From NCBI GenBank assembly GCA_021513695.1, contig CP084166.1, forward strand, positions 2,368,001 to 2,432,000: DNA of 64,000 nucleotides, in the 5' to 3' direction. Positions 5,377-57,576 of this stretch are shown piece after piece (position 1 is the first letter of the stretch; every line of letters starts with the position of its first letter). The DNA is from Candidatus Heimdallarchaeum aukensis (GTDB taxonomy: Archaea > Asgardarchaeota > Heimdallarchaeia > Heimdallarchaeales > Heimdallarchaeaceae). The notes below the pieces were generated by a model. That model was not told the DNA's origin, searched no databases, and saw nothing but the letters and a program-made list of their open reading frames with translations. Position numbers and translations under genes: made by a program.

Positions 5377-5787
5377 ATGCTATCGTCATCAAATCTTAAT
5401 GTGAAAGAGATGCTTAATATTGCTCTCGACTGTATTTTCCCAACTAGTGAATCAATAGAACCTGAAATATTAAAAGAAATCACAAAATTCTTAGAACAAC
5501 AAGAACCTCAAGCTCCAACAGAAGATGCTGAAATTGTTAGAGGTGAAATAAGGAAAGCATTAATCCACTTTAAAAATCGTCCTTATTTGTATAATTCTAG
5601 AAAGAAAATTGAGAGTCTATTACTTAAGAACGAAAATTGGAAAAAATTCATTATTGCTCCTCATTCATTTAAAGATGAACTTATTGAAGCAGGGTTATCA
5701 TCAAAAGAGATAGCATTGTTGAAATCATCTCTTGAGAATGCAGAAAACACATTAAACCTCCTAAAACATATTCCCCAACCTCACTAA
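5377..5787 (+). CDS. Hypothetical protein
   Basis: ORF track 5368..5787 begins at a TTG; the first ATG is at 5377 (MLSSSNLN). Helical-looking sequence with no motif recognised. Confidence 0.4.
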   Translation: MLSSSNLNVKEMLNIALDCIFPTSESIEPEILKEITKFLEQQEPQAPTEDAEIVRGEIRKALIHFKNRPYLYNSRKKIESLLLKNENWKKFIIAPHSFKDELIEAGLSSKEIALLKSSLENAENTLNLLKHIPQPH

Positions 5788-5912
5788 TCTTTTTGCATTC
5801 TCCTTTTTTTAAATCCTATTCTTTTTTCTTGTTAATTTCATTCTCCTTTTTACTCTCAATTACATGAAAAAAAAAGATAATGTTTTAAATTATTGATTTT
5901 TTCTTAATTTTA

Positions 5913-7433
5913 ATGGCAGATTTAAGACTTAAATACGGTACATCGCTAAATAAACAAAAAATGATGGAAATAACTATTGTAAGTATTATTGCACTATTTC
6001 TCTTTGTTTTGTCATTATATGTTAAAGATGCTTTTTGTTCTTGGTTCAATATGCAGAAGGGTGCAGGTTTTTACTGGTATTATGACCCCTCTAACCCTGA
6101 AGCTGTTTGGTACATAGAAGGATACGTTGATGCCTCATATTATTATCAACCTTATTTGTATGCATTTAGATATCAGAATTGGAATCCTTACTTGGGTGGA
6201 GAAGGACCATTGAATGGTTATGCTTATGGCCCCCTTTTTATATATGGTCTTTATTTTATTTCTCTTTTTGTTTCTATTGCAAATCCTTCTCTAACGAATT
6301 TTCAAGTGGTAATTGAATCAGTAAAATGGACACATATTGTTTTTGACTCATTATCGGTTGTTATGCTTTTTTTTATTGTTATCAATTTAGAAATAATGAA
6401 GTCAAAGAAATTTTCTAAATATTTAACTGGTGTTATAGCATCTGTTGTATATATTTTCATGCCCTTTAATCTGCTATACATTGATGCTTTAAGTCTTAAT
6501 ATTCCTCAAATGACTTTCTTTGTTCTTCTTGGAACATTTTTATTTAGAAAAGAAAAATATATTTTATCTTCATTTGCCATGACTTTGGGTTGGTTATCGA
6601 AACAGATGCCACTATTTATTGTTGTTCCTTGGTTTATAATACTCTGGAAAAAAGATGAAGACTTGAAAAAAGCACTTGTAGATTTCTTATTCCCTTTCTT
6701 TATTTTCACTTTGATATTCTCAATTCCTTGGTTAATATTGTCACCGGGAGGATATTTATTTAGAATATTTGGACCTGGAAAACCATTATCTATCGTTTCT
6801 TTGTCTTCCAAATATAATGGATATACTGTCACCTTGGCACATAGTTTTCTGAAATTAGGAAGCGAAACTTTAGCAAACATATATTTGTTTCTAAATAAGT
6901 ATATGATACCTTTTTTTGTTTTTTATATACTTACGTTATTAATTTGCTATTTTAATGCTTTAGATATATTTAATGACGAAAAACAATTTTACATTTATAA
7001 CACAGTAGTAATTCTTGTGTCTCATATATTCATTTCTAGAGGAATTTACAAATATTATGATGCATTTTTTTCTCCTTTCTTCATTCTTTTTCTTGTTTTA
7101 CTACTTTGGTCTTATTTTGACTTATGTAGATTCAACAATAGAACTTTATTGTATTCTTATTTTTTCGTTTCAATAATTTCCAGTTCAATTATTTTGTACT
7201 ATATTAATTGGGTAATAATCATCAAATCTAGATTCCTTCATCCTCTCTACTTGTTATTAATTTTTATTTTCATTTCTAGCTTTTTAGAAAGTAATTTTTA
7301 CTCGAGTCTAACCAAGTTTGAAAGCTACAGAATGATAATATTAGATATCAAAAAGATTTACTCTGATATAAAAAACTCTCTTCGAATACACAAAAAGGAA
7401 AAAGATCCGAAAATAAATCCGAATTTAGAATAA
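5913..7433 (+). CDS. Polytopic membrane protein, GT-C-type glycosyltransferase-like (DUF2029/PIG-M-like)
   Basis: 506 aa with more than 10 predicted hydrophobic helices. The first loop YVDASYYYQPYLYAFRYQNWNPYLGG..YAYGPLF resembles the D..Y...G.sPY...Y.YpPL loop of GT-C mannosyltransferase-like families. Confidence 0.45.
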   Translation: MADLRLKYGTSLNKQKMMEITIVSIIALFLFVLSLYVKDAFCSWFNMQKGAGFYWYYDPSNPEAVWYIEGYVDASYYYQPYLYAFRYQNWNPYLGGEGPLNGYAYGPLFIYGLYFISLFVSIANPSLTNFQVVIESVKWTHIVFDSLSVVMLFFIVINLEIMKSKKFSKYLTGVIASVVYIFMPFNLLYIDALSLNIPQMTFFVLLGTFLFRKEKYILSSFAMTLGWLSKQMPLFIVVPWFIILWKKDEDLKKALVDFLFPFFIFTLIFSIPWLILSPGGYLFRIFGPGKPLSIVSLSSKYNGYTVTLAHSFLKLGSETLANIYLFLNKYMIPFFVFYILTLLICYFNALDIFNDEKQFYIYNTVVILVSHIFISRGIYKYYDAFFSPFFILFLVLLLWSYFDLCRFNNRTLLYSYFFVSIISSSIILYYINWVIIIKSRFLHPLYLLLIFIFISSFLESNFYSSLTKFESYRMIILDIKKIYSDIKNSLRIHKKEKDPKINPNLE

Positions 7434-7577
7434 AAATATGATTTTTCAATTATCATTTCTTAACTTTATACTTTCCCTTTTTTAAGAAATCTTCTATAAT
7501 AGCAATGTTTGACCTATATCAAAAAGAATTATAAAGTATAAAATTTCATTATTAGTAGTAAATAGTAAGGTATTCAA

Positions 7578-8138
7578 ATGAAGGAAACAAAAAATCGTGC
7601 TGTTTCTCCAGTTATAGGAACAATGCTAATGATTAGTTTAGTTATTGCGGCGAGTGTATTTGTGGCAATTTTTATTGGCAATATTAGAGTTCCTGCAATT
7701 GAAATTGGAGAAGAGACTCCCTCTCTTTATTCAGTAAACATTGATGTTATTTATTTTAACATAACTGATACTAATTCTAATGGACTAAATGATACACTTG
7801 TAGTAAAGTTTAATCTGGATTTAGATTCCCCAACAATTTATGTACAAGATATTGACATTTTGTTGCCTACAGGAAACTTACTTGATGATATAGTTCCATG
7901 GGTTATTATTGATTCAAATAGCTCTTGGAATTCAGACTTCTATGGATATTCTGTTTTGAATGGTAGTTTGAATGCTACATTTACTGTACAATGTTATGAC
8001 CTATCTAAGTCTGTAGGTGAAATTGCTCCAGGATATTCATTTTATTATTTAATTAAATATAACTATGTTTCTGTCAAAGGAAACCAATTGACTCTTATTT
8101 CTGATGTTTATCAATCAGAGTTAATAGAGACAAAATAA
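7578..8138 (+). CDS. Archaeal type IV pilin-like protein (class III signal peptide, DUF1628-type N-terminus)
   Basis: N-terminus MKETKNRAVSPVIGTMLMISLVIAASVFVAIF matches the archaeal prepilin motif (R/K-G/A-x-SPVIG followed by a hydrophobic helix). The rest is rich in N-x-S/T sequons. Confidence 0.75.
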   Translation: MKETKNRAVSPVIGTMLMISLVIAASVFVAIFIGNIRVPAIEIGEETPSLYSVNIDVIYFNITDTNSNGLNDTLVVKFNLDLDSPTIYVQDIDILLPTGNLLDDIVPWVIIDSNSSWNSDFYGYSVLNGSLNATFTVQCYDLSKSVGEIAPGYSFYYLIKYNYVSVKGNQLTLISDVYQSELIETK

Positions 8139-8214
8139 TATACAACATAATAATACATTTTTTTCTTTTTTCAAAACATTTTTTTAGATATTTGTGCTTA
8201 CTAATTTGAACATA

Positions 8215-8949
8215 ATGTCCCTTGAACCAAAACGAGCTTATAAAATAGTTTTAATTGGAGACCCAGAAGTAGGAAAAACTTCCATAAGAAGAAGATATAT
8301 GGGAAAAACGTTTAAAGGAGAATATTTGAAAACAATAGGTGCTGACTTTGCAGCACAAAAAGTAGAAATTGAAGATGAGGTCGTTTTATTAACAATATGG
8401 GATCTAGCTGGGCAAACTATCTTTCATGGAATGCGTTCTTCCTTTTACCAAGGATGTAAGTCTGCGTTAGTTGTTTTTGATGTAACAAATGTTGAAAGTT
8501 TGAACAATGTAGAAAAATGGACAGAAGAAGCTGTAACCTATGCAAAAAGTTCATTACAAGAGATTTATTTAATAGGCAATAAAATAGATTTGAAGAAAGA
8601 GAGAGTAGTTACAAAAGAACAAATAGACAAAAAAGTAAAACAATTGGAATCTTTAGTTAACTTTCCTATTAGAGTTTATGAAACATCTGCTCTTACAGGA
8701 GAAAATATCCAATCTTTATTTATGGATCTAAGTAGACGATTAATTATTAGTGATAACGTTAAATTTGAAGAAGAAATAGAAGCTAAACGTGCTCATGATG
8801 TTAAGAAAGAAAAAAGAAAAGAACCAGGTAAAGATGTTGATTATAAATCTAAAGATGACTTGAAAGAGATAATAAACCATATCGAGCTTCATGTTGAGAA
8901 AATAAATGACTTTATCAAATTATTGAAAAAACGATTAGATAAACTGTAA
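8215..8949 (+). CDS. Rab/Ras-like small GTPase with about 70-aa charged/coiled-coil C-terminal extension
   Basis: G1 GDPEVGKT, switch I YLKTIGADF, G3 WDLAGQ, G4 GNKIDL, G5 ETSAL. The ORF track starts at GTG 8194; ATG 8215 (MSLEPKRAYKIVLIG) fits the family N-terminus. No C-terminal Cys (no CAAX). Confidence 0.85.
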   Translation: MSLEPKRAYKIVLIGDPEVGKTSIRRRYMGKTFKGEYLKTIGADFAAQKVEIEDEVVLLTIWDLAGQTIFHGMRSSFYQGCKSALVVFDVTNVESLNNVEKWTEEAVTYAKSSLQEIYLIGNKIDLKKERVVTKEQIDKKVKQLESLVNFPIRVYETSALTGENIQSLFMDLSRRLIISDNVKFEEEIEAKRAHDVKKEKRKEPGKDVDYKSKDDLKEIINHIELHVEKINDFIKLLKKRLDKL

Positions 8950-50614: not shown

Positions 50615-50995
50615 TTAAAAATCATAAACCCAATTTGTTTCGGGAATGTACAGCAAATTTAAGATAAGTGTCCATACTGCTATAGTTACAATAAAAAACT
50701 GAAAGATTGCAGAAGTATAAAATGATTTAGTTTTAAGTCCAGTATTTTTGTTTCTATAAATTAAAAACCAAACTGAAGATGTTAATAGAAATACTCCAAG
50801 TAATGTAAGTCCTGCTGGCCAGTTTCTAAAATTAGTTACACCAAAGATTATTCCTGTAACTATTCCCACTAAAACTTTTGAATAGTACATTTTATTTGTT
50901 AAAGGCATTTCTTTAATCTTTTCTAACCAGTTGACGGGATTCAAATTGTTTTTAACTTTATTCTTAATTTTGTTCATATCAATATTCAAACTCAT
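50615..50995 (-). CDS. Small 3-TM membrane protein; weak resemblance to the EMC6/Rab5ip family (speculative)
   Basis: YSKVLVGIVTGIIFGVTNF..LLGVFLLTSSVWFLIY..IAVWTLILNLLY loosely parallels the remembered human EMC6 ([35 protein letters not shown]). The start is uncertain; internal Met codons lie at nt 50977 and 50908. Confidence 0.5.
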   Translation of the reverse strand: MSLNIDMNKIKNKVKNNLNPVNWLEKIKEMPLTNKMYYSKVLVGIVTGIIFGVTNFRNWPAGLTLLGVFLLTSSVWFLIYRNKNTGLKTKSFYTSAIFQFFIVTIAVWTLILNLLYIPETNWVYDF

Positions 50996-51011
50996 TCACC
51001 CAGGTGTTAAT

Positions 51012-53027
51012 ATGAAATCATCATTAACTTCATTAGATATCAATTGTCTTGTTGAGGAACTGAGACCCGAAATTATCGGCAGTTGGCTCAATAACGTCTA
51101 TAACATTGGAGAGAAATTACTTATTTTAAAGTTTCGAAAGTCTAGCAAAATTAATTTTGAGCTTATTATTGAACTAGGAAAAAGGTTTCATATAACAAAA
51201 TATGCCCGAAGTAAACCACCTGCTCCGAACAACAAGGTAGCAATGATGCGTAAACATATAAAAGGACTTCCTGTTGATGATTTTTATCAAATTGGTTTAG
51301 ATAGAATTATAGTATTTGAGATAGCTTACAAAGATTCACATTATAAGCTAGTTATTGAGTTGTTTGGAGAGGGGAATTACATTCTAGTAGATCCTGCAAA
51401 CAGGATATTGGTTGCTCAAACATATAGAAAAATGCGAGATAGAGATATTCATCCCGGAAAAGAGTTTTTCTTACCTCCACAACAAGAAAAAGATATTCTT
51501 TCAATTAGTAAGGACGATATTCTGGAATCTCTATCAAGTAAAGAAGAAAAAATCATCCCACTTCTCAATAAACTTTTAGGGTTAGGCCCTAAATATTCAA
51601 AAAATATTCTGGATAAGGCAAAAATCAATAACAAGGTAACAACTGAGTTAACCACCAACGAAAAAGAGTCACTCATAAAAGAAATACTAGAATTAAAGAA
51701 AATAATAGAAGAAAAAAGATATTCTCCTGTTGAGTATTTTGATGGTGAAGAAGTTATTGATATATCGCCTATTCCAATAGAGAAGTATAATGATTTAGAA
51801 AAAAAAGAACTAGATTCATTTAATGATGCTCTAGATGACTTTTTCACTGAAAATGAAGAGACACCAGAGTTCGAGAAAACAGAAGGAAAAATAAAGAGTA
51901 CTCAGTCAAAACATGAAAAAATTCTCCAGAATCAAATTGAACATAAGAAAAAACTAGAATTACAAGAGGAGTTAGAAAGAAAAAAAGGTGATTTACTATA
52001 TGCTCACTTCTCATTAGTTGATGAATTGCTAAACACCATTATAAAAGCGAGGAAAAATAATGTTCCTTGGTCTGAAATAGAGAAAAAAATGGATGAAGCA
52101 AAAAAGAAGAATATTCCTGCAGCATTAATCTTACACAAGATCAACCCTAAAACAAAAGAAATATGGGTAAAATTGGAAGATTTAGAAACTGGAGAAAATG
52201 AAATAATTGTACTAGATTTCACTCTTTCTGTTGCCGATAATGCGAATAAATTTTATGAAAAAAGTAAGAAGGCAAGGAGAAAAATACCAGGGGCCATCCA
52301 AGCAATAGAACGAACAAAACAACAAATTGAGAAAATGAAAGAGAAAGGAGAGCAACTTCTTACTGAAAAAGAAACTAGAAAAATGGTTGAAAAACGTCCA
52401 AAACGATGGTTCGAAAAATTTCACTGGTTTTTATGCGATGACACTGTAATCGTTGGAGGAAAAGATGCTAAATCCAATGAAAGATTACTTAAAACTTATC
52501 TGGAAGACGATGATCTCTTTTTCCATGCAGATGTGCATGGAGCCCCTTATGTTATAGCTAAAGACGGTAGGAAAAAACTCTCTGATGAATGTGTTAAAGA
52601 AATAGCAGCTTTTGCTCTATCGTTCTCAAGTTTGTGGAAAGCAAAAAAATTAGTGGGCGATGTCTATTACGTAAATCCTGATCAAGTGAGCCTAAGTGCT
52701 CCTTCTGGACAATATCTGGCTAAAGGAAGTGTAATGATATATGGAGAAAAGAATTATGTTAAGAATGTGGAAGTCAATCATGTGTTGGGATTAATCATTC
52801 ATGAAAACTACGCTCAGGTAATTGGAGGACCTATGAGAAGTGTTGACAATAAAACTGACATGATAATAAGATTAAAACCTGGCGAAATTAGTAAAGGAAA
52901 AATAGCAAAAATAATAAAGCAAAAGTTTATTGAGATGTGTCCAGAAGAAGATAAGTACAAAGTTGAAGCTCTTGATATTAATGAAATAATGGACTTCATT
53001 CCTGGAGATTCAGAGATAATAGAATAA
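51012..53027 (+). CDS. NFACT-family ribosome-quality-control protein (NEMF/Rqc2/RqcH homologue; FbpA N-terminus + DUF814)
   Basis: N-terminus MKSSLTSLDINCLVEELRPEIIGSWLNNVY (NFACT-N). Central coiled coil. The NFACT-R/DUF814 segment carries DDLFFHADVHGAPYVIAK. The track start 50931 adds a hydrophobic extension antisense to the neighbouring gene. Confidence 0.8.
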   Translation: MKSSLTSLDINCLVEELRPEIIGSWLNNVYNIGEKLLILKFRKSSKINFELIIELGKRFHITKYARSKPPAPNNKVAMMRKHIKGLPVDDFYQIGLDRIIVFEIAYKDSHYKLVIELFGEGNYILVDPANRILVAQTYRKMRDRDIHPGKEFFLPPQQEKDILSISKDDILESLSSKEEKIIPLLNKLLGLGPKYSKNILDKAKINNKVTTELTTNEKESLIKEILELKKIIEEKRYSPVEYFDGEEVIDISPIPIEKYNDLEKKELDSFNDALDDFFTENEETPEFEKTEGKIKSTQSKHEKILQNQIEHKKKLELQEELERKKGDLLYAHFSLVDELLNTIIKARKNNVPWSEIEKKMDEAKKKNIPAALILHKINPKTKEIWVKLEDLETGENEIIVLDFTLSVADNANKFYEKSKKARRKIPGAIQAIERTKQQIEKMKEKGEQLLTEKETRKMVEKRPKRWFEKFHWFLCDDTVIVGGKDAKSNERLLKTYLEDDDLFFHADVHGAPYVIAKDGRKKLSDECVKEIAAFALSFSSLWKAKKLVGDVYYVNPDQVSLSAPSGQYLAKGSVMIYGEKNYVKNVEVNHVLGLIIHENYAQVIGGPMRSVDNKTDMIIRLKPGEISKGKIAKIIKQKFIEMCPEEDKYKVEALDINEIMDFIPGDSEIIE

Positions 53028-53257: not shown

Positions 53258-54538
53258 TTGGTGAGTCCTATCACTCAAAAGAAGAAATGCCCTGTATGTG
53301 GATATGTGACAAAAGATCATCGTTTAATGAATTGTCCTAATTGTGGAACAGAGCTTATTTTAGATGTTGTTCTTCCAAGCCTAAATGTTCAGGATTCTTT
53401 TTTTGATATACAAGGAAACGAGTTAAAAGAAACACATAATCTAGGGAACAATAGTAAAAAAATTGACCAACCAGCTTGGCAAATAATGGATCAGGAAGGT
53501 GGAGCGACACAATATCCACTATTTGTAAAAAAGGAAGTAAATCTGTATCCTGTAATTCAAATACCCAGAGTTTCATTTGATTTTTTTAAGCAATATAGAG
53601 TTATATATCTAATTCTAATTTCAATACTCTCAATGTTACAATCAGCTTCTTTTTTGTTCCTAATATCGAGTTTATATGTCATGTTAAATCGAATTAAGTC
53701 GTCTAGCGCTGTTTCTATTATTCCATTTTTACTAGTAGGATTAATCTGTTATTCACTATTTTCTTATTTACAATTTAAATTTATATTTCATATAAAGCAA
53801 AAAAACTTCCCAGAAAGAATATTAGAAAAAGATTCTTCCTTTACTAGTTTTGTTCTAATTAATGCTTTACAATTGTTATTTTCCGCTATTCTCTTAGGAG
53901 TAATTTTCTTATTAATAGCAAAATCGGGAGCAAATATTGAGAAACCAATTATTTCTCAACTTATGTTGGGATTAGGGCTTCTACTAATTGTTCCATTGTT
54001 ACTAGTCTTTAGAACAGCAAAAATTTTAAGCTTGATGAGGAAAACAGGGATCTTTCAAAACATGTACGATGCCATTCAATTTTCAAAATTTTCATTAAGA
54101 AGGGGATACGGGATTCTCTTTGTAAGTATATTATTACCTATTTTCATAGTTACTCTTGGGGTCGGATCTATAACTACATGTTTATCTTCTCTTTTCAGAA
54201 TTTCTGGTTACACAGTGTCAGTATTGCATATTGTTACTACTGTATTTTTACTTATATTGGTGTCTGGATTATTCCTTATTTCAAATAATGAAGATGTTGA
54301 TATTTTGTCCATCTATGAATCATACTTGTTTGCTTTCTCCGTTCCACCTAAAATAACTTGGTTAAATAAAGAAACCAATATCGAAAGCTCGAAAGAAGAA
54401 AAACAAGAATTTGAAGATTTATTTAATCTAGACAATGTTGACTCTTTAGTTGAAGTAAAGTACTGCCCAGTTTGTTCAAGTAAATTACCTGATGATGTTG
54501 ACTATTGTGTGAGCTGTGGTCACCCTCTAAGAGAATGA
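53258..54538 (+). CDS. Polytopic membrane protein bracketed by N- and C-terminal zinc ribbons
   Basis: Non-ATG start (TTG 53258 or GTG 53261). CPVCGY..CPNCG at the N-terminus, CPVCSS..CVSCG at the C-terminus, about 8 TM helices between. Confidence 0.55.
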   Translation: MVSPITQKKKCPVCGYVTKDHRLMNCPNCGTELILDVVLPSLNVQDSFFDIQGNELKETHNLGNNSKKIDQPAWQIMDQEGGATQYPLFVKKEVNLYPVIQIPRVSFDFFKQYRVIYLILISILSMLQSASFLFLISSLYVMLNRIKSSSAVSIIPFLLVGLICYSLFSYLQFKFIFHIKQKNFPERILEKDSSFTSFVLINALQLLFSAILLGVIFLLIAKSGANIEKPIISQLMLGLGLLLIVPLLLVFRTAKILSLMRKTGIFQNMYDAIQFSKFSLRRGYGILFVSILLPIFIVTLGVGSITTCLSSLFRISGYTVSVLHIVTTVFLLILVSGLFLISNNEDVDILSIYESYLFAFSVPPKITWLNKETNIESSKEEKQEFEDLFNLDNVDSLVEVKYCPVCSSKLPDDVDYCVSCGHPLRE

Positions 54539-54567: not shown

Positions 54568-55305
54568 TCACTTGAATTTTTTTACGAGTTGTTTTAGAAT
54601 TGTTTGTATTGTTTCTATTTTTTCTTCTATTTTCTCCACTCTTTTAACAAGCTTATTGAATTCGTCAGCTGATACTTCTACTTCTCCAGAGACTGATTCC
54701 ATCATCGATTCTTTAATATCTATAATTCCAGGAGCAAGTTCTTTTTTCTTTGTTACTTTAACGTTATTTGCTTCGAGAAGTGTGTAAGCCAAGAAATCAA
54801 ACGTTTCTTGGATATTTTGTCCTGTTAATGCCGATGTTTCACTATAGTAGAAGTTTATTCCCGTTTCAGTCATTAGTCTCTGACAAAATTCTATAGCCAT
54901 TTTCTGTGATACTCTCCTATTTTCTGGAGGAAGATCGATCTTATTAGCTATTACAAAGTAAACTAGAATTCCAGAATTTGAACCTTCAATACTCTCTTCT
55001 AGCCATGTTCGTAGATTAGTCATTGTTTGTTGATCTTGGATATCAAATACCAACAAAGCAGCTATAGCTCCTTTATAAAAAGTTGACCTAACAGCTGAAT
55101 AGCTATCTTGTCCTGCAAGATCCCATATCTGAAAAGTGATGTCATTGTCTTCTACTTTTACTTTTTTTGAAGCAAAGTCAGCCCCAATTGTTTTAAGATA
55201 GTCTCCTGTAAATCCTTTTCCCATATATCTCTCTCTAATAGAGGTCTTTCCTACTGCTCCATCTCCAGCCAATACAATTTTAAAATTCCATTTTTTTCCT
55301 GTCAA
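54568..55305 (-). CDS. Rab/Ras-like small GTPase with coiled-coil C-terminal extension (paralogue of 8215..8949)
   Basis: TTG start preceded by GGTGA. G1 GDGAVGKT, switch I YLKTIGADF, G3 WDLAGQ, G4 ANKIDL, G5 ETSAL. No C-terminal Cys. Confidence 0.85.
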   Translation of the reverse strand: MTGKKWNFKIVLAGDGAVGKTSIRERYMGKGFTGDYLKTIGADFASKKVKVEDNDITFQIWDLAGQDSYSAVRSTFYKGAIAALLVFDIQDQQTMTNLRTWLEESIEGSNSGILVYFVIANKIDLPPENRRVSQKMAIEFCQRLMTETGINFYYSETSALTGQNIQETFDFLAYTLLEANNVKVTKKKELAPGIIDIKESMMESVSGEVEVSADEFNKLVKRVEKIEEKIETIQTILKQLVKKFK

Positions 55306-55309
55306 GATT

Positions 55310-55996
55310 TCACCCTTGTTGTTTGTATTTAGCTAATTCTTCTTCTAGCTCATCTATTCTTCTCTGAGCTTCAAGTAATCTCTTTTGGAATGTTTCTCCT
55401 ACTTCCTGCTGAGTTCTTTCAAAGTGTGCTTTTGCTTCTTCTAACTCTTTCCTCATTTTTTCTCTTTCCTCACGAGCTTTCTTTATTTCTTCACTCTCAC
55501 GAACTGTTTGAACAGCCTTTTTGAGCAATGTTTCCAAGTCATCTTTTGAAACATCAAAATTTGAGGAAGTAAGCATCTTTAGAGCGTTAAATTCATCAGC
55601 AGAGATTGTAGGTCTACTTTTCATTAGGTCTTCAACCTTCTCTTGTAGAGCTTTTTTCTCGATAAGTAGATCAGAAACCTGTGCTTTCAGTTGTCTATTT
55701 TCTTCACTTAATTGAGTAGAATTTTGTGTTTCAATATCAAGTGATCTTCTAAGATGTTCAATCTCATCAGAACTTTCTCCTAATTGCTTTATGTATCGAA
55801 CTAGCATAACTATATATTCACGCAAAAGAGGATGGATTAAATGCCAATATTGATGGATTTCTCGTTCAATATCAGATAATCTCGGATCTTTCATGTTTGG
55901 AGGGAGTTTTACAAAAACAGGGTTTTCAACATCAATTTGGGGATAATACTCTGGAATATAATTGTAGATTGTTTCTCCTTTATACTTTTTAAACAT
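55310..55996 (-). CDS. Coiled-coil protein co-transcribed with the GTPase
   Basis: 228 aa. The C-terminal two thirds are heptad-like and E/K/Q/L-rich. Its TGA stop lies inside the GGTGA preceding the GTPase TTG start, with a 4-nt spacer. Confidence 0.65.
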   Translation of the reverse strand: MFKKYKGETIYNYIPEYYPQIDVENPVFVKLPPNMKDPRLSDIEREIHQYWHLIHPLLREYIVMLVRYIKQLGESSDEIEHLRRSLDIETQNSTQLSEENRQLKAQVSDLLIEKKALQEKVEDLMKSRPTISADEFNALKMLTSSNFDVSKDDLETLLKKAVQTVRESEEIKKAREEREKMRKELEEAKAHFERTQQEVGETFQKRLLEAQRRIDELEEELAKYKQQG

Positions 55997-56160
55997 AGTT
56001 TAACCTCACTTTTTTAATCAATTATATGTATCAATTACATTTAATAAAAGTTTTATGTCAAAGGAAAAACTAATGAAAGTTAAATTGAGAATGTTTTTTA
56101 AAGTTAGTTAGTAATTCTAAGTAGGCCTAAATAATTTACAAATCTACGATTGTGAAAGAA

Positions 56161-57576
56161 ATGAGTGAAGAAAATAAAGAACAGTTTTTTGAGTTAGTGA
56201 AAGAGATAGATGAGATTGTTTTCCAACACATGAAAGATAAAGCTACATCAATAGAGTTTAAACAAGTCTTAAAAAAAGAAAAAAGTGATATTAAACCTAT
56301 TAATTCAATACTTGATGCAGAAAATGAGGAAACAGAGATATCATCAGTTATGGATAATATAGGTATTAATACAAAAAAGGCAAATATTCTTGAAGAAGAG
56401 CAGTTGTTATTAGAAGAAGCAGAGGAAAATAAAATATTTTTACAATTAAAGGACAAGTATCCTGACTATAATATCTATATAAAGCAGATATATTGTTCAA
56501 GTAGCTATCAAGAGGACAGAGTAATTCAGCTTTTACAAAAAGATCTAACCTCGCTCAAAGACATACGAATTAAGAAAAGTGAGATCAAGTTTTTTCCATT
56601 TTTATTGCATAATATTAAGTTTGTATTAGAAAAACCATTTTCTATTAGTTTTTACGATTATGAAATCCCTATCTATAGAACTTTACAAGAAGAAAAACTG
56701 CGTTTTTATCCAATAGGAGAATATCCTTTTGAAGAAAGAGAGAAAATTTTTGAAAATAAGTGGATTCCACTAATAAGTAGTTTGCAACACTCATTAATAA
56801 AATCAATTAATGATGGAAAGTTAGCTGAAAAGAGAGTAGAAAGAATAGATAAAAAAAATATTTCACCTGTTGATTTTAGTAAATTACAAGAATCAATCAG
56901 TGCTTCTATAGATAGTGCAAAGAAAGCTTTTTCAAATCCTAATAAAGAAAACACGTCTAATTTTGAAACATTTTGGCAGAATGAGAAACAGTTCAACAAT
57001 GCTATATTACAATTAAAAAAACAGTTAGTAAATATAGAGCATGAGTTAAAAGAAGAAGATGATAGGATAAAAGAAGAGTATCTAGAATTAAAGAAAAAAC
57101 AAGTAAAATTGAATAAAGAAGCAAAAATGTATAAGCAACTTGAAAATCAAGGAATAAAAATTGAACGAGAAAAAAAAGAAAAAGTTGCAAAGATGTTATC
57201 TGAATTTCAAAGCAAAAAAGAATCAGTTCAGAAAAAACTCTTTGAATTTAAGAAGAAAAAGAACTTGTTGGAGCAACTGACAGAGCTTATTAAAAATAAG
57301 AATATGACTGATTTTGAAAAGAACTTTAGAATGCTCTTCAAGAAAGATGTTGACAATGCATTAGAAGCAATTAAAACAAGCATCGAAGAGCAAGGATCTA
57401 ATATAAATTTAGTTGAAAGTAACCATCTTGAAAAAAATATTAGGTTACATGTTGTTTGGGTTCCAATATTCTTAATAACCTTCAAAGCATCACAAGAGGA
57501 ACGTAAAATAGATGGAAAAGCATTTTATTCAGATTTTGATAATAAAGTCTTCATTATTTCTCCTACCACAAGTTAG
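56161..57576 (+). CDS. Hypothetical protein with long central coiled coil
   Basis: Track ORF 56152 starts at GTG; the first ATG is at 56161 (MSEENKEQ). The K/E-rich central region is flanked by beta-like N- and C-terminal parts. The antisense ORFs are spurious. Confidence 0.55.
   Translation: MSEENKEQFFELVKEIDEIVFQHMKDKATSIEFKQVLKKEKSDIKPINSILDAENEETEISSVMDNIGINTKKANILEEEQLLLEEAEENKIFLQLKDKYPDYNIYIKQIYCSSSYQEDRVIQLLQKDLTSLKDIRIKKSEIKFFPFLLHNIKFVLEKPFSISFYDYEIPIYRTLQEEKLRFYPIGEYPFEEREKIFENKWIPLISSLQHSLIKSINDGKLAEKRVERIDKKNISPVDFSKLQESISASIDSAKKAFSNPNKENTSNFETFWQNEKQFNNAILQLKKQLVNIEHELKEEDDRIKEEYLELKKKQVKLNKEAKMYKQLENQGIKIEREKKEKVAKMLSEFQSKKESVQKKLFEFKKKKNLLEQLTELIKNKNMTDFEKNFRMLFKKDVDNALEAIKTSIEEQGSNINLVESNHLEKNIRLHVVWVPIFLITFKASQEERKIDGKAFYSDFDNKVFIISPTTS

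Follow-up and report, generated by a model that had tools for sequence, protein, structure and literature searches.

A Rab-like GTPase with a predicted coiled-coil tail and its orphan coiled-coil partner in a putative operon of the Heimdallarchaeaceae

Asgard archaea encode many small GTPases whose partners are almost entirely unknown, because Rab-like genes in these organisms, including those for Thor-Rab and the MK-D1 GTPases, are generally not found in operons with regulators (Tran et al. 2024, PMC10933270). In the window analysed here, a 64,000-nt stretch of a Heimdallarchaeaceae genome (Candidatus Heimdallarchaeum aukensis) that is 94% identical to Ca. Heimdallarchaeum endolithica, a Rab-like GTPase gene lies directly behind a gene for a coiled-coil protein, hereafter the partner, raising the question of whether the two products belong together and what they might do. 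Both open reading frames reported for the pair in the initial annotation, the 228-aa coiled-coil protein and the TTG-start GTPase, were correct, and the locus comprises the following features.

54568..55305, minus strand: GTPase gene, 245 aa, TTG start, Rab-like (Pfam, PDB, orthologue alignment)
55310..55996, minus strand: partner gene, 228 aa, ATG start (ORF call)
55303..55315, minus strand: junction GGGTGAAATCTTG, with the partner TGA inside a GGTGA Shine-Dalgarno-like element, the spacer AATC and then the GTPase TTG
55997..56151, no strand: AT-rich, 155-nt intergenic region separating partner gene and divergent gene (sequence inspection)
53258..54538, plus strand: convergent neighbour, 426 aa (Pfam zinc ribbons, hydropathy, CxxC conservation)
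56152..57576, plus strand: divergent neighbour, 474 aa from the GTG at 56152, or 471 aa from the ATG at 56161 (public records)

The coiled-coil gene was found 5' of the GTPase gene and on the same strand in 26/26 species-level Heimdallarchaeaceae genomes, so that the pairing singled out by the initial annotation is conserved in the relatives, far beyond chance. In 25 of the 26 genomes the two genes are separated by 4-25 nt containing a ribosome-binding site that resembles GGTGA (GGTGA or AGGxG), which leaves no room for a separate promoter, and the sole exception carries a TnpB-like insertion between the genes. This tight spacing has been kept over about 35% sequence divergence, and the arrangement identifies partner and GTPase as a tight, lineage-specific predicted operon conserved across the Heimdallarchaeaceae. 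A gene for a six-transmembrane (6-TM) double-zinc-ribbon protein lies convergently and directly downstream of the GTPase gene in all 26 genomes, and the partner, GTPase and 6-TM genes are inverted together relative to the flanking genes, behaving as one unit. The cluster has a neighbour of equal constancy in the NFACT gene, and neighbourhood alone is therefore weak evidence for the outer genes. Mean p-distances of 0.33 for the partner, 0.30 for the GTPase and 0.62 for the membrane protein put the conservation of the partner on a par with that of the GTPase; the distance matrices of partner and GTPase correlated at r = 0.91 (partial correlation given NFACT 0.66), values that are confounded by shared phylogeny, and this mirror-tree signal lends weak support to a link. 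Farther out in the Heimdallarchaeia, Kariarchaeaceae included, five distinct loci were examined, and in four of them the partner homologue did not adjoin the orthologous GTPase. One distant lineage still has its partner homologue within 3 kb of a probable GTPase orthologue, which shares 57% identity over the G domain and has a coiled-coil tail that is longer still. A phage or defence-system origin of the locus was rejected, as PADLOC and PHROGs returned coiled-coil or zinc-ribbon noise only, and Rfam found no RNA family within the whole window.

The junction reads ...caa ggg TGA aatc TTG..., with the TGA (55312-55310) within GGGTGA; the stop inside GGTGA, the 4-nt spacer and the TTG start had thus been described correctly. 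The stoichiometric co-expression deduced from this junction, however, does not follow from close spacing. In H. endolithica the partner stop is a TAA just before AGGTGAAATCTTG, and in the relatives the stop precedes the Shine-Dalgarno element, so that short spacing and ribosome-binding site are kept and the stop overlap, confined to the lineage of the window, is not. A local TAA>CAA change relative to H. endolithica has moved the partner stop into the ribosome-binding site, and the overlap was accordingly discarded as a designed coupling device. On the other side of the partner gene, GTGAGGT precedes the ATG by 7 nt and a TTTTATTAAA box lies ~47 nt upstream, both in the 155-nt intergenic region, which may serve as a promoter region.

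The G domain of the GTPase (residues 9-175) contains G1 GDGAVGKTS, switch I YLKTIGADF, G3 WDLAGQ, G4 NKID and G5 ETSA, all invariant in 27 orthologues. The profile matches (Pfam Ras PF00071, E = 9.7e-40, 136.2 bits against a cut-off of 21.6; TIGR00231, 70.2 bits against a cut-off of 42.5) and the G1-G5 motifs assign the predicted protein to the Ras-superfamily small GTPases, and the Pfam match to Gtr1_RagA was weak next to that to Ras. Among solved structures the best match was Thorarchaeota Rab 7EZB (E = 1.5e-34 over residues 5-179), followed by Rab7, with Rab11, Rab9 and Ypt also matched, in agreement with the Rab-like identity proposed initially. Pereira-Leal and Seabra in 2000 reportedly gave the motifs RabF1-F5 as IGVDF, KLQIW, RFRSIT, YYRGA and LVYDIT; a comparison by eye finds a close match in IGADF, partial matches in TFQIW, FYKGA and LVFDIQ, and a difference between SYSAVRS and RFRSIT. 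No C-terminal prenylation cysteines (CC, CXC or CAAX) were present, the protein ending in ...LKQLVKKFK, and no aligned orthologue has a C-terminal Cys. Its C-terminus instead carries the following element.

54571..54696, minus strand: GTPase tail, ~residues 204-245, SVSGEVEVSADEFNKLVKRVEKIEEKIETIQTILKQLVKKFK (alignment and heptad count)

The tail is a predicted N-capped amphipathic helix of ~4.5 heptads (about 35 residues) with a regular a/d pattern. The helix is conserved in all orthologues and the linker before it (~180-203) is variable; the conserved heptad tail probably replaces a lipid anchor. A paralogous GTPase elsewhere in the window (8194..8949), overlooked in the initial annotation, aligns with the same kind of tail and has no coiled-coil partner gene adjacent, and the tail may thus be a self-association or general-purpose module and not a partner-specific anchor. 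The tail also matched the N-terminus of MtrG (PF04210; E = 3.5e-4, 20.9 bits, below the 27-bit cut-off), with which it has an N-capped xxEFNxLxxRhxxIExK heptad helix in common. A relationship to MtrG was rejected given the sub-cut-off score, the lack of a TM helix after the tail and the lack of a methyltransferase context, and the match is best read as a recurring helix-start and heptad pattern and not as homology.

The partner has 72 homologues, all from Heimdallarchaeota. Its N-terminal 60 residues are its most conserved part, with K6, G7, E8, T9, Y17, L31, P32, E44, R45, Y50, W51, P56 and E60 invariant in the alignment, and begin with a highly conserved peptide, predicted to be unstructured (residues 1-37), in the pattern KGETI..Y..LPP..KD.RL..ERE..YW..HP..REY. 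The AlphaFold2 model (mean pLDDT 71, pTM 0.26) consists of elongated helices and is otherwise disordered: a long helix (38-126) ends in a break at RP-T-I-S132 (coil 127-132), followed by short helices at 133-146 and 154-166 and a C-terminal helix (169-227) carrying the invariant block FEKTQxEVGxTFQ. No family reached its cut-off in Pfam or NCBIfam. The sub-cut-off matches (Rab11-FIP3, 18.6 bits against a cut-off of 31.9; DUF3629, ZapB, FtsB, Filament, SMC, HlyD, JetC) have the appearance of typical coiled-coil noise; no known Rab/Arf coiled-coil effector family matched above cut-off, and neither Pfam nor NCBIfam gave a Robl_LC7 or longin signature, in keeping with a wholly helical or disordered model. 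Foldseek gave no match in the PDB, where an elongated-helix model with a pTM of 0.26 makes a fold search uninformative, and a profile of the N-terminal region retrieved gp41 noise only from PDB sequences (E ~0.1). Against 1.84 billion representative proteins the same profile found 8 matches, those with source names being from Heimdallarchaeia, and none provided a tie to a known family or a fusion with a GTPase. The description of the partner as a coiled-coil protein without family assignment thus withstood Pfam, NCBIfam, PDB profile and Foldseek searches, and a literature search found no published description of the partner or the pair, as the initial annotation had supposed.

As third member of the cluster, the convergent 426-aa protein is the most constant, and it had been missed initially. 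It has an N-terminal zinc ribbon (CxxC 11, 26), a C-terminal zinc ribbon (CxxC 403, 417), approximately six predicted TM helices between residues 118 and 341 and an acidic C-terminal region, and its gene stops 29 nt from the GTPase stop; about six TM helices would place both zinc ribbons on the same side of the membrane. Scanning ten diverse homologues at E <= 1 yielded zinc-ribbon families and a weak TackOD1 match in six of the ten (best E 0.004), and a profile of the protein matched zinc ribbons only among PDB sequences. Membership of the Yip1 family (PF04893), multi-pass membrane proteins that interact with Rabs, found no support at the sequence level, no Yip1 match being among the 25 of 38 matched families listed.

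For the divergent gene, the reported frame with its K/E-rich helix is present, but encodes 474 or 471 aa and not 472. The protein is acidic at its N-terminus and strand-rich at ~100-200, with a long K/E-rich helical hairpin at ~265-378 and C-terminal strands at 436-466; the AlphaFold2 model, built from three sequences, was poor (pLDDT 39), with the hairpin alone at 70-80, and Pfam and PDB sequence profiles returned noise only. A word-index search found two close homologues only, and homologues with 23-30% identity lie within the cluster in every genome whose contig reaches far enough. Divergent transcription from a shared intergenic region holds for the genus Heimdallarchaeum only; the 20 other genomes whose fetched sequence includes the gene have it divergent from that for the membrane protein and not from that for the partner. 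This side-switching was set aside as independent evidence of linkage, since a three-gene inversion between the same flanks suffices and NFACT is equally constant.

Taken with the gene order, these predictions give roughly even odds to a model in which the operon products form a GTPase-controlled complex, with the tail helix as anchor, the partner as scaffold and the membrane protein as docking point. One mRNA would yield both partner and GTPase, and the two would form a complex. In it the tail helix, on its flexible linker, would take over the role of a lipid anchor through protein-protein contacts, and could zipper onto the partner coiled coil or mediate self-association of the GTPase. The invariant N-terminal peptide and the FEKTQxEVGxTFQ block of the partner could supply further contact sites, the 6-TM protein, with both zinc ribbons presumed cytoplasmic, would be the probable docking site at the membrane, and the GTP/GDP switch would control assembly or recruitment of the coiled-coil scaffold.

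The strong conservation of the partner N-terminus admits another reading, namely that the partner regulates the GTPase, in the manner of a GAP, GEF or GDI, and does not act as effector or tether. The N-terminal peptide 1-37 and the YW..HP..REY helix start would then dock on the switch regions and the coiled coil would serve oligomerisation only. That the most conserved stretch of the protein is predicted to be disordered alone, as expected of a peptide that folds on binding, fits this proposal, and MglA/MglB is a known operonic GTPase-regulator pair that provides a precedent. The partner, however, resembles no roadblock, longin, TBC, DENN or other regulator family, its homologues lie away from the GTPase in other lineages, and a conserved Arg or Gln finger context cannot be assigned from its sequence; we regard a regulatory role as unlikely.

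It seems similarly doubtful that the two genes are merely co-transcribed, with the tail as a homo-oligomerisation module and both proteins serving the same process without a stable complex, be it cell division, polarity or cytoskeleton-like scaffolding in the manner of MglA/SofG-type spatial regulators. The tailed paralogue without an adjacent partner gene and the looser linkage in distant lineages are in line with this arrangement, as are the weak partner matches to ZapB, FtsB, SMC, intermediate filament and JetC families, although these fall far below cut-offs and resemble coiled-coil noise. The very tight spacing maintained over such divergence speaks against it, as does a partner more conserved than is usual for a plain coiled coil. 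A bolder version of the GTPase-controlled complex, which we would call a long shot, is that the trio, possibly with the 471/474-aa hairpin protein, constitutes a Heimdallarchaeaceae-specific membrane-organising machine, an analogue of Rab-golgin systems in which a Rab-like switch, held by a coiled-coil helix and not by a prenyl group, recruits or releases a coiled-coil tether at a zinc-ribbon membrane receptor.

The initial annotation had also linked the two proteins through a common hexapeptide, which occurs at two sites.

55586..55603, minus strand: partner copy of SADEFN at residues 132-137, codons tct gct gat gaa ttt aac, N-capping the predicted helix 133-146
54655..54672, minus strand: GTPase copy of SADEFN at tail residues 212-217, codons tca gct gac gaa ttc aat, N-capping the tail helix

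The hexapeptide is indeed present twice with different codons (4/6 differ), at a helix start in both proteins, and a composition-preserving shuffle of this one partner-GTPase pair gave p = 0.0033; moreover, two loci (L019 and L025) share the pentapeptide SKEEF at the same two positions. Conservation of a shared element at the protein level, on the other hand, was not borne out, and orthologous pairs lack the identity. Exact SADEFN is limited to the four closest partner sequences, and no GTPase orthologue other than that of the window has it, the site reading SAEEFK in the H. endolithica GTPase and SRDEFD, SKEEFD, TKEDID, SKKELE and others elsewhere. At the partner site E135 alone is invariant, with P129 just upstream nearly so (variants SAEELE, TAEEIQ, SDEEIR, SKEEFE, RPEEFQ), and distant partner homologues have EKEKKAL-type sequence at this position. 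The two sites do not co-vary, the 10-mer identity being 3.0/10 for same-locus and cross-locus comparisons alike (permutation p = 0.54). Nor does the shared hexapeptide exceed chance: 12 other exact 6-mers are common to unrelated proteins among the 57 ORFs of the window, so that ~0.4 such matches are expected among its 56 adjacent pairs, and 21 instances of the core [ST]x[DE]E-hydrophobic are present among the 19,121 residues of the window. The pattern hydrophobic-[ST]-x-[DE]-E-hydrophobic is a textbook capping box with hydrophobic staple. Both sites (I-S-A-D-E-F and V-S-A-D-E-F) fit hydrophobic-[ST]-x-x-E-hydrophobic, this N-cap pattern is retained in all 27 orthologue pairs while the residues vary, and the partner model passes from coil to helix at residue 133, as an N-capping box requires. 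The sites are thus read, from these alignments, as a generic helix N-cap consensus, identical by chance in this genome and without a special role, and a function for SADEFN as a docking or recognition element linking GTPase tail to effector, already largely refuted by these data, is very improbable.

Among known systems, the closest solved relatives are the Asgard Rab-like GTPases (7EZB), which share the Ras/Rab G1-G5 motifs and the absence of prenylation cysteines, Asgard Rab-like proteins lacking a prenylated extension (Tran et al. 2024, PMC10933270). The C-terminus of Thor-Rab is truncated, whereas the Heimdall GTPase has a ~70-residue extension ending in the conserved heptad helix and, unlike Thor-Rab and the MK-D1 GTPases, is encoded in a conserved operon with its partner. 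The combination of a Rab-type switch and a long coiled-coil protein, with a membrane component near and Rab7, Rab11 and Ypt as the best eukaryotic matches, is reminiscent of eukaryotic Rab-effector systems (Rab11-FIP, golgins, Rabaptin/EEA1). In contrast to these, the Heimdall partner has no homology to effector families, neither a prenyl anchor nor a REP/GDI system is expected, the GTPase itself bears the coiled-coil element and the genes are operonic. The MglA/MglB and Rag/Ragulator roadblock/longin modules likewise place a Ras-superfamily GTPase beside a small non-enzymatic partner gene in prokaryotes, but the Heimdall partner is predicted to be all-helical, with no Robl_LC7 or longin domain, and its GTPase is Rab-like and not MglA- or Rag-like.

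The locus provides a rare GTPase-partner pair that is tightly spaced and conserved family-wide, and with it a candidate membrane receptor, three small proteins that can be expressed recombinantly, and the coiled-coil tail suggests how an unprenylated Rab-like protein could be localised. Heimdallarchaeaceae are close relatives of eukaryotes. A cultured member of the family has internal membrane compartments and no canonical or recognisable trafficking genes (bioRxiv 10.1101/2025.11.06.686947), which makes any membrane-linked GTPase module in these organisms worth testing. Should the module be unrelated to membranes, the partner would still represent a new orphan family of coiled-coil proteins confined to the Heimdallarchaeia.

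The coiled-coil partner and the Rab-like GTPase are encoded in tandem, and re-reading of the window bore out everything that the initial annotation had stated on the two ORFs, their junction and the copies of the hexapeptide SADEFN.

55310-55996, reverse strand: partner ORF, 228 aa
54568-55305, reverse strand: GTPase ORF, 245 aa, TTG start

Gene order was compared across 26 loci obtained by scanning one genome per species. The proposed pairing is conserved in relatives: all 26 loci carry a GTPase orthologue (62-92% identical) 3' of the partner gene on the same strand, and in 25 of them the stop-to-start gap is 4-25 nt, with a GGTGA or AGGxG element 4-8 nt 5' of the ATG, GTG or TTG start. Given this constant order and narrow spacing, there is practically no doubt that the two genes are co-transcribed, and selection acts on the operon. 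The sole split operon, in the homologous locus L021 (one of 26 genomes), has a 2.1-kb insertion placed exactly between the two genes, containing the following ORF.

L021 (DAOVKB010000015.1) 5743-7671, reverse strand: TnpB/Cas12f-like ORF, 642 aa, with a PF07282 TNB domain, a zinc ribbon and a NAAHNI motif

At the junction in the window (caa-ggg-TGA-aatc-TTG), the partner stop lies inside GGGTGA, four nucleotides 5' of the GTPase start, as had been described. This overlap of stop codon and ribosome-binding site is, however, not conserved in relatives. In the locus comparison, the Ca. Heimdallarchaeum endolithica junction reads ...caa TAA AGGTGAAATCTTG, and alignment of window positions 55310-55318 with 5673-5695 of the homologous locus L004 indicates that a partner TAA stop was lost in the window lineage (TAA>CAA), the protein now extending two codons (Q-G) further, to the TGA within the GGTGA ribosome-binding site of the GTPase gene. 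By these comparisons the overlap is of recent origin and limited to the window lineage. The close gene spacing is compatible with coupled translation without proving it, and the stoichiometric co-expression previously deduced from it does not follow, as close spacing does not entail 1:1 output. One JGI contig, L003, matches the window except at an A-run directly after the TTG start, and its GTPase call (689-1363) begins at a later ATG and gives 218 aa; this discrepancy is probably one of assembly or frameshift, not of biology.

The initial annotation further proposed SADEFN as a motif shared by the two proteins, to be abandoned should it occur at random frequency. The two coding sites (55603-55586 in the partner, 54672-54655 in the GTPase) differ in four of six codons. 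In the partner alignment, SADEFN is limited to the four closest sequences, other relatives having SAEELE, TAEEIQ, SDEEIR, SKEEFE or RPEEFQ; around the site E135 is the sole invariant residue and P129 is nearly invariant. Among the GTPase tails it occurs in the window protein only, orthologues having SAEEFK (H. endolithica) or SRDEFD, SKEEFD, TKEDID or SKKELE. Both sites conform to hydrophobic-[ST]-x-[DE]-E-hydrophobic-x-x-[LMI], the classical capping box plus hydrophobic staple found where an alpha-helix begins, and in its AlphaFold2 model (mean pLDDT 71) the partner is coil at 127-132 and helical from 133; the pattern is absent at this position from distant partner homologues. Identity between the two 10-residue SADEFN segments averages 3.0 within the same genome and also 3.0 across genomes (permutation p = 0.54), and the segments therefore do not co-vary. 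A shuffle test of the SADEFN pair gave p = 0.0033; a further 12 exact 6-mers, however, are common to unrelated products of the window's 57 ORFs, which corresponds to about 0.4 expected per 56 adjacent pairs. The proposal of a shared motif therefore fails on its own terms, and we conclude that the two hexapeptides are identical by coincidence, at sites that both follow a generic consensus for helix starts. The most striking argument of the initial annotation thus falls away.

The GTPase matches the Ras family of Pfam (E = 1e-39), and its best solved relatives are a Thorarchaeota Rab (7EZB, 1.5e-34) followed by Rab7, Rab11, Rab9 and Ypt, supporting its assignment as Rab-like. The G1-G5 motifs are invariant across the orthologue alignment, and a C-terminal cysteine is lacking. 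A variable linker leads into a conserved tail helix, [VI][ST]xx[DE]h xxLxx[RK]hxxhEx[KR]hx[TS]hQ[TA]Ih[KT][KQ]hh, with a clean a/d heptad pattern of about 4.5 heptads. The tail (54571-54696, reverse strand) shows the same pattern as the N-terminus of MtrG at a sub-threshold 20.9 bits (cut-off 27 bits), which was treated as convergence; the helix start xxEFNxLxxRhxxIExK is one that unrelated coiled-coil segments of archaea seem to use repeatedly. A paralogue elsewhere in the window has a long tail of this kind as well, with an N-capped heptad helix at its end (SKDDLKEIINHIELHVEKINDFIKLLKKRLDKL), and is preceded directly by a pilin-like gene; no coiled-coil gene adjoins it.

7578-8138, forward strand: archaeal type IV pilin-like gene (Pilin_N)
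8194-8949, forward strand: paralogous Rab-like GTPase, 251 aa, 41% identical to the focal GTPase

This second GTPase with the same tail type suggests a tail-bearing subfamily in this lineage.

An identical partner protein is encoded on short metagenomic contigs, a Candidatus Heimdallarchaeaceae MAG encodes one with 99% identity, and for K9W46_11800 of Ca. Heimdallarchaeum endolithica PR6 the identity is 94%. The partner's 72 homologues (54-99% identity) all come from Heimdallarchaeota metagenomes or MAGs, and Pfam and NCBIfam searches returned no family at cut-off, only coiled-coil noise. Residues 1-37 are the most conserved part and yet predicted disordered; helices make up the remainder, the last of them containing the block FEKTQxEVGxTFQ, which is invariant. 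When 1.84 billion representative proteins were searched with a profile built from the first 82 residues, only eight were retrieved; those with source names that could be looked up are Heimdallarchaeia, Kariarchaeaceae included. The tight operon is absent from the distant lineages reached by this profile and is therefore a Heimdallarchaeaceae-level feature. In one of them (L031) the linkage is looser, yet persists, an amidohydrolase gene and a GLUCM-like gene separating a GTPase 57% identical to that of the window, with an even longer coiled-coil tail, from the partner homologue.

L031 2613-3458 and 6001-6717: orthologous GTPase (281 aa) and partner homologue (32% identical), the GTPase lying 2.5 kb upstream

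In Kariarchaeaceae the GTPase near the partner homologue is a different, tail-less paralogue, and in two other distant lineages no GTPase was found within 7 kb of it.

A gene for a 426-aa membrane protein lies convergent to and directly downstream of the GTPase gene in 26/26 loci. At each terminus the protein carries a conserved CxxC...CxxC zinc ribbon, and with about six transmembrane helices in the protein both ribbons are predicted to lie on the same side; neither the family matches listed nor a profile search of PDB sequences gave a match for the transmembrane core, Yip1 included. Two further genes flank the cluster.

50931-53027, forward strand: NFACT/RqcH-type ribosome quality-control protein (NFACT_N and NFACT-R_1)
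to 57576: ORF of 474 aa from GTG 56152 or 471 aa from ATG 56161 (public-record call)

NFACT is a neighbour in every locus long enough to cover it, and the 471/474-aa protein (23-30% identity) in every locus of sufficient length; the AlphaFold2 model of the latter (pLDDT 39) is too poor to use except for a helical hairpin at about 265-378. The divergent orientation noted for this gene holds relative to the partner only in the window and H. endolithica; in the other loci that cover it, the gene diverges from that of the membrane protein instead. The side on which NFACT lies, and its distance, are not the same in the genus Heimdallarchaeum as in the other genomes. These arrangements are consistent with, and most simply accounted for by, an inversion of the partner, GTPase and membrane-protein genes between constant flanks (NFACT and the 471/474-aa gene). 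Such an inversion argues that the trio is the functional unit, with the 471/474-aa protein a possible further member.

It is thus established that the operon is conserved, that its Rab-like switch lacks a lipid-anchor motif and carries a conserved coiled-coil tail, that the coiled-coil partner is likewise conserved and its N-terminal peptide invariant, and that a membrane-protein gene is a constant neighbour. We propose that the partner and GTPase would form a complex, that the tail may bind the partner or itself and so serve as an anchor in place of prenylation, and that the membrane protein could be the docking site. Partner and GTPase evolutionary distances are correlated (r = 0.91; partial r given NFACT = 0.66), which weakly favours this mechanism.

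The GTPase belongs to the already known Asgard Rab-like group, and Asgard Rabs have been described without a C-terminal extension and as generally not operonic with partners (Tran et al. 2024, PMC10933270). The tail, the orphan partner family and the conserved three-gene unit appear undescribed in the searchable literature and family libraries. What remains is a clean, testable module of GTPase, partner and membrane protein in the archaeal family closest to eukaryotes.
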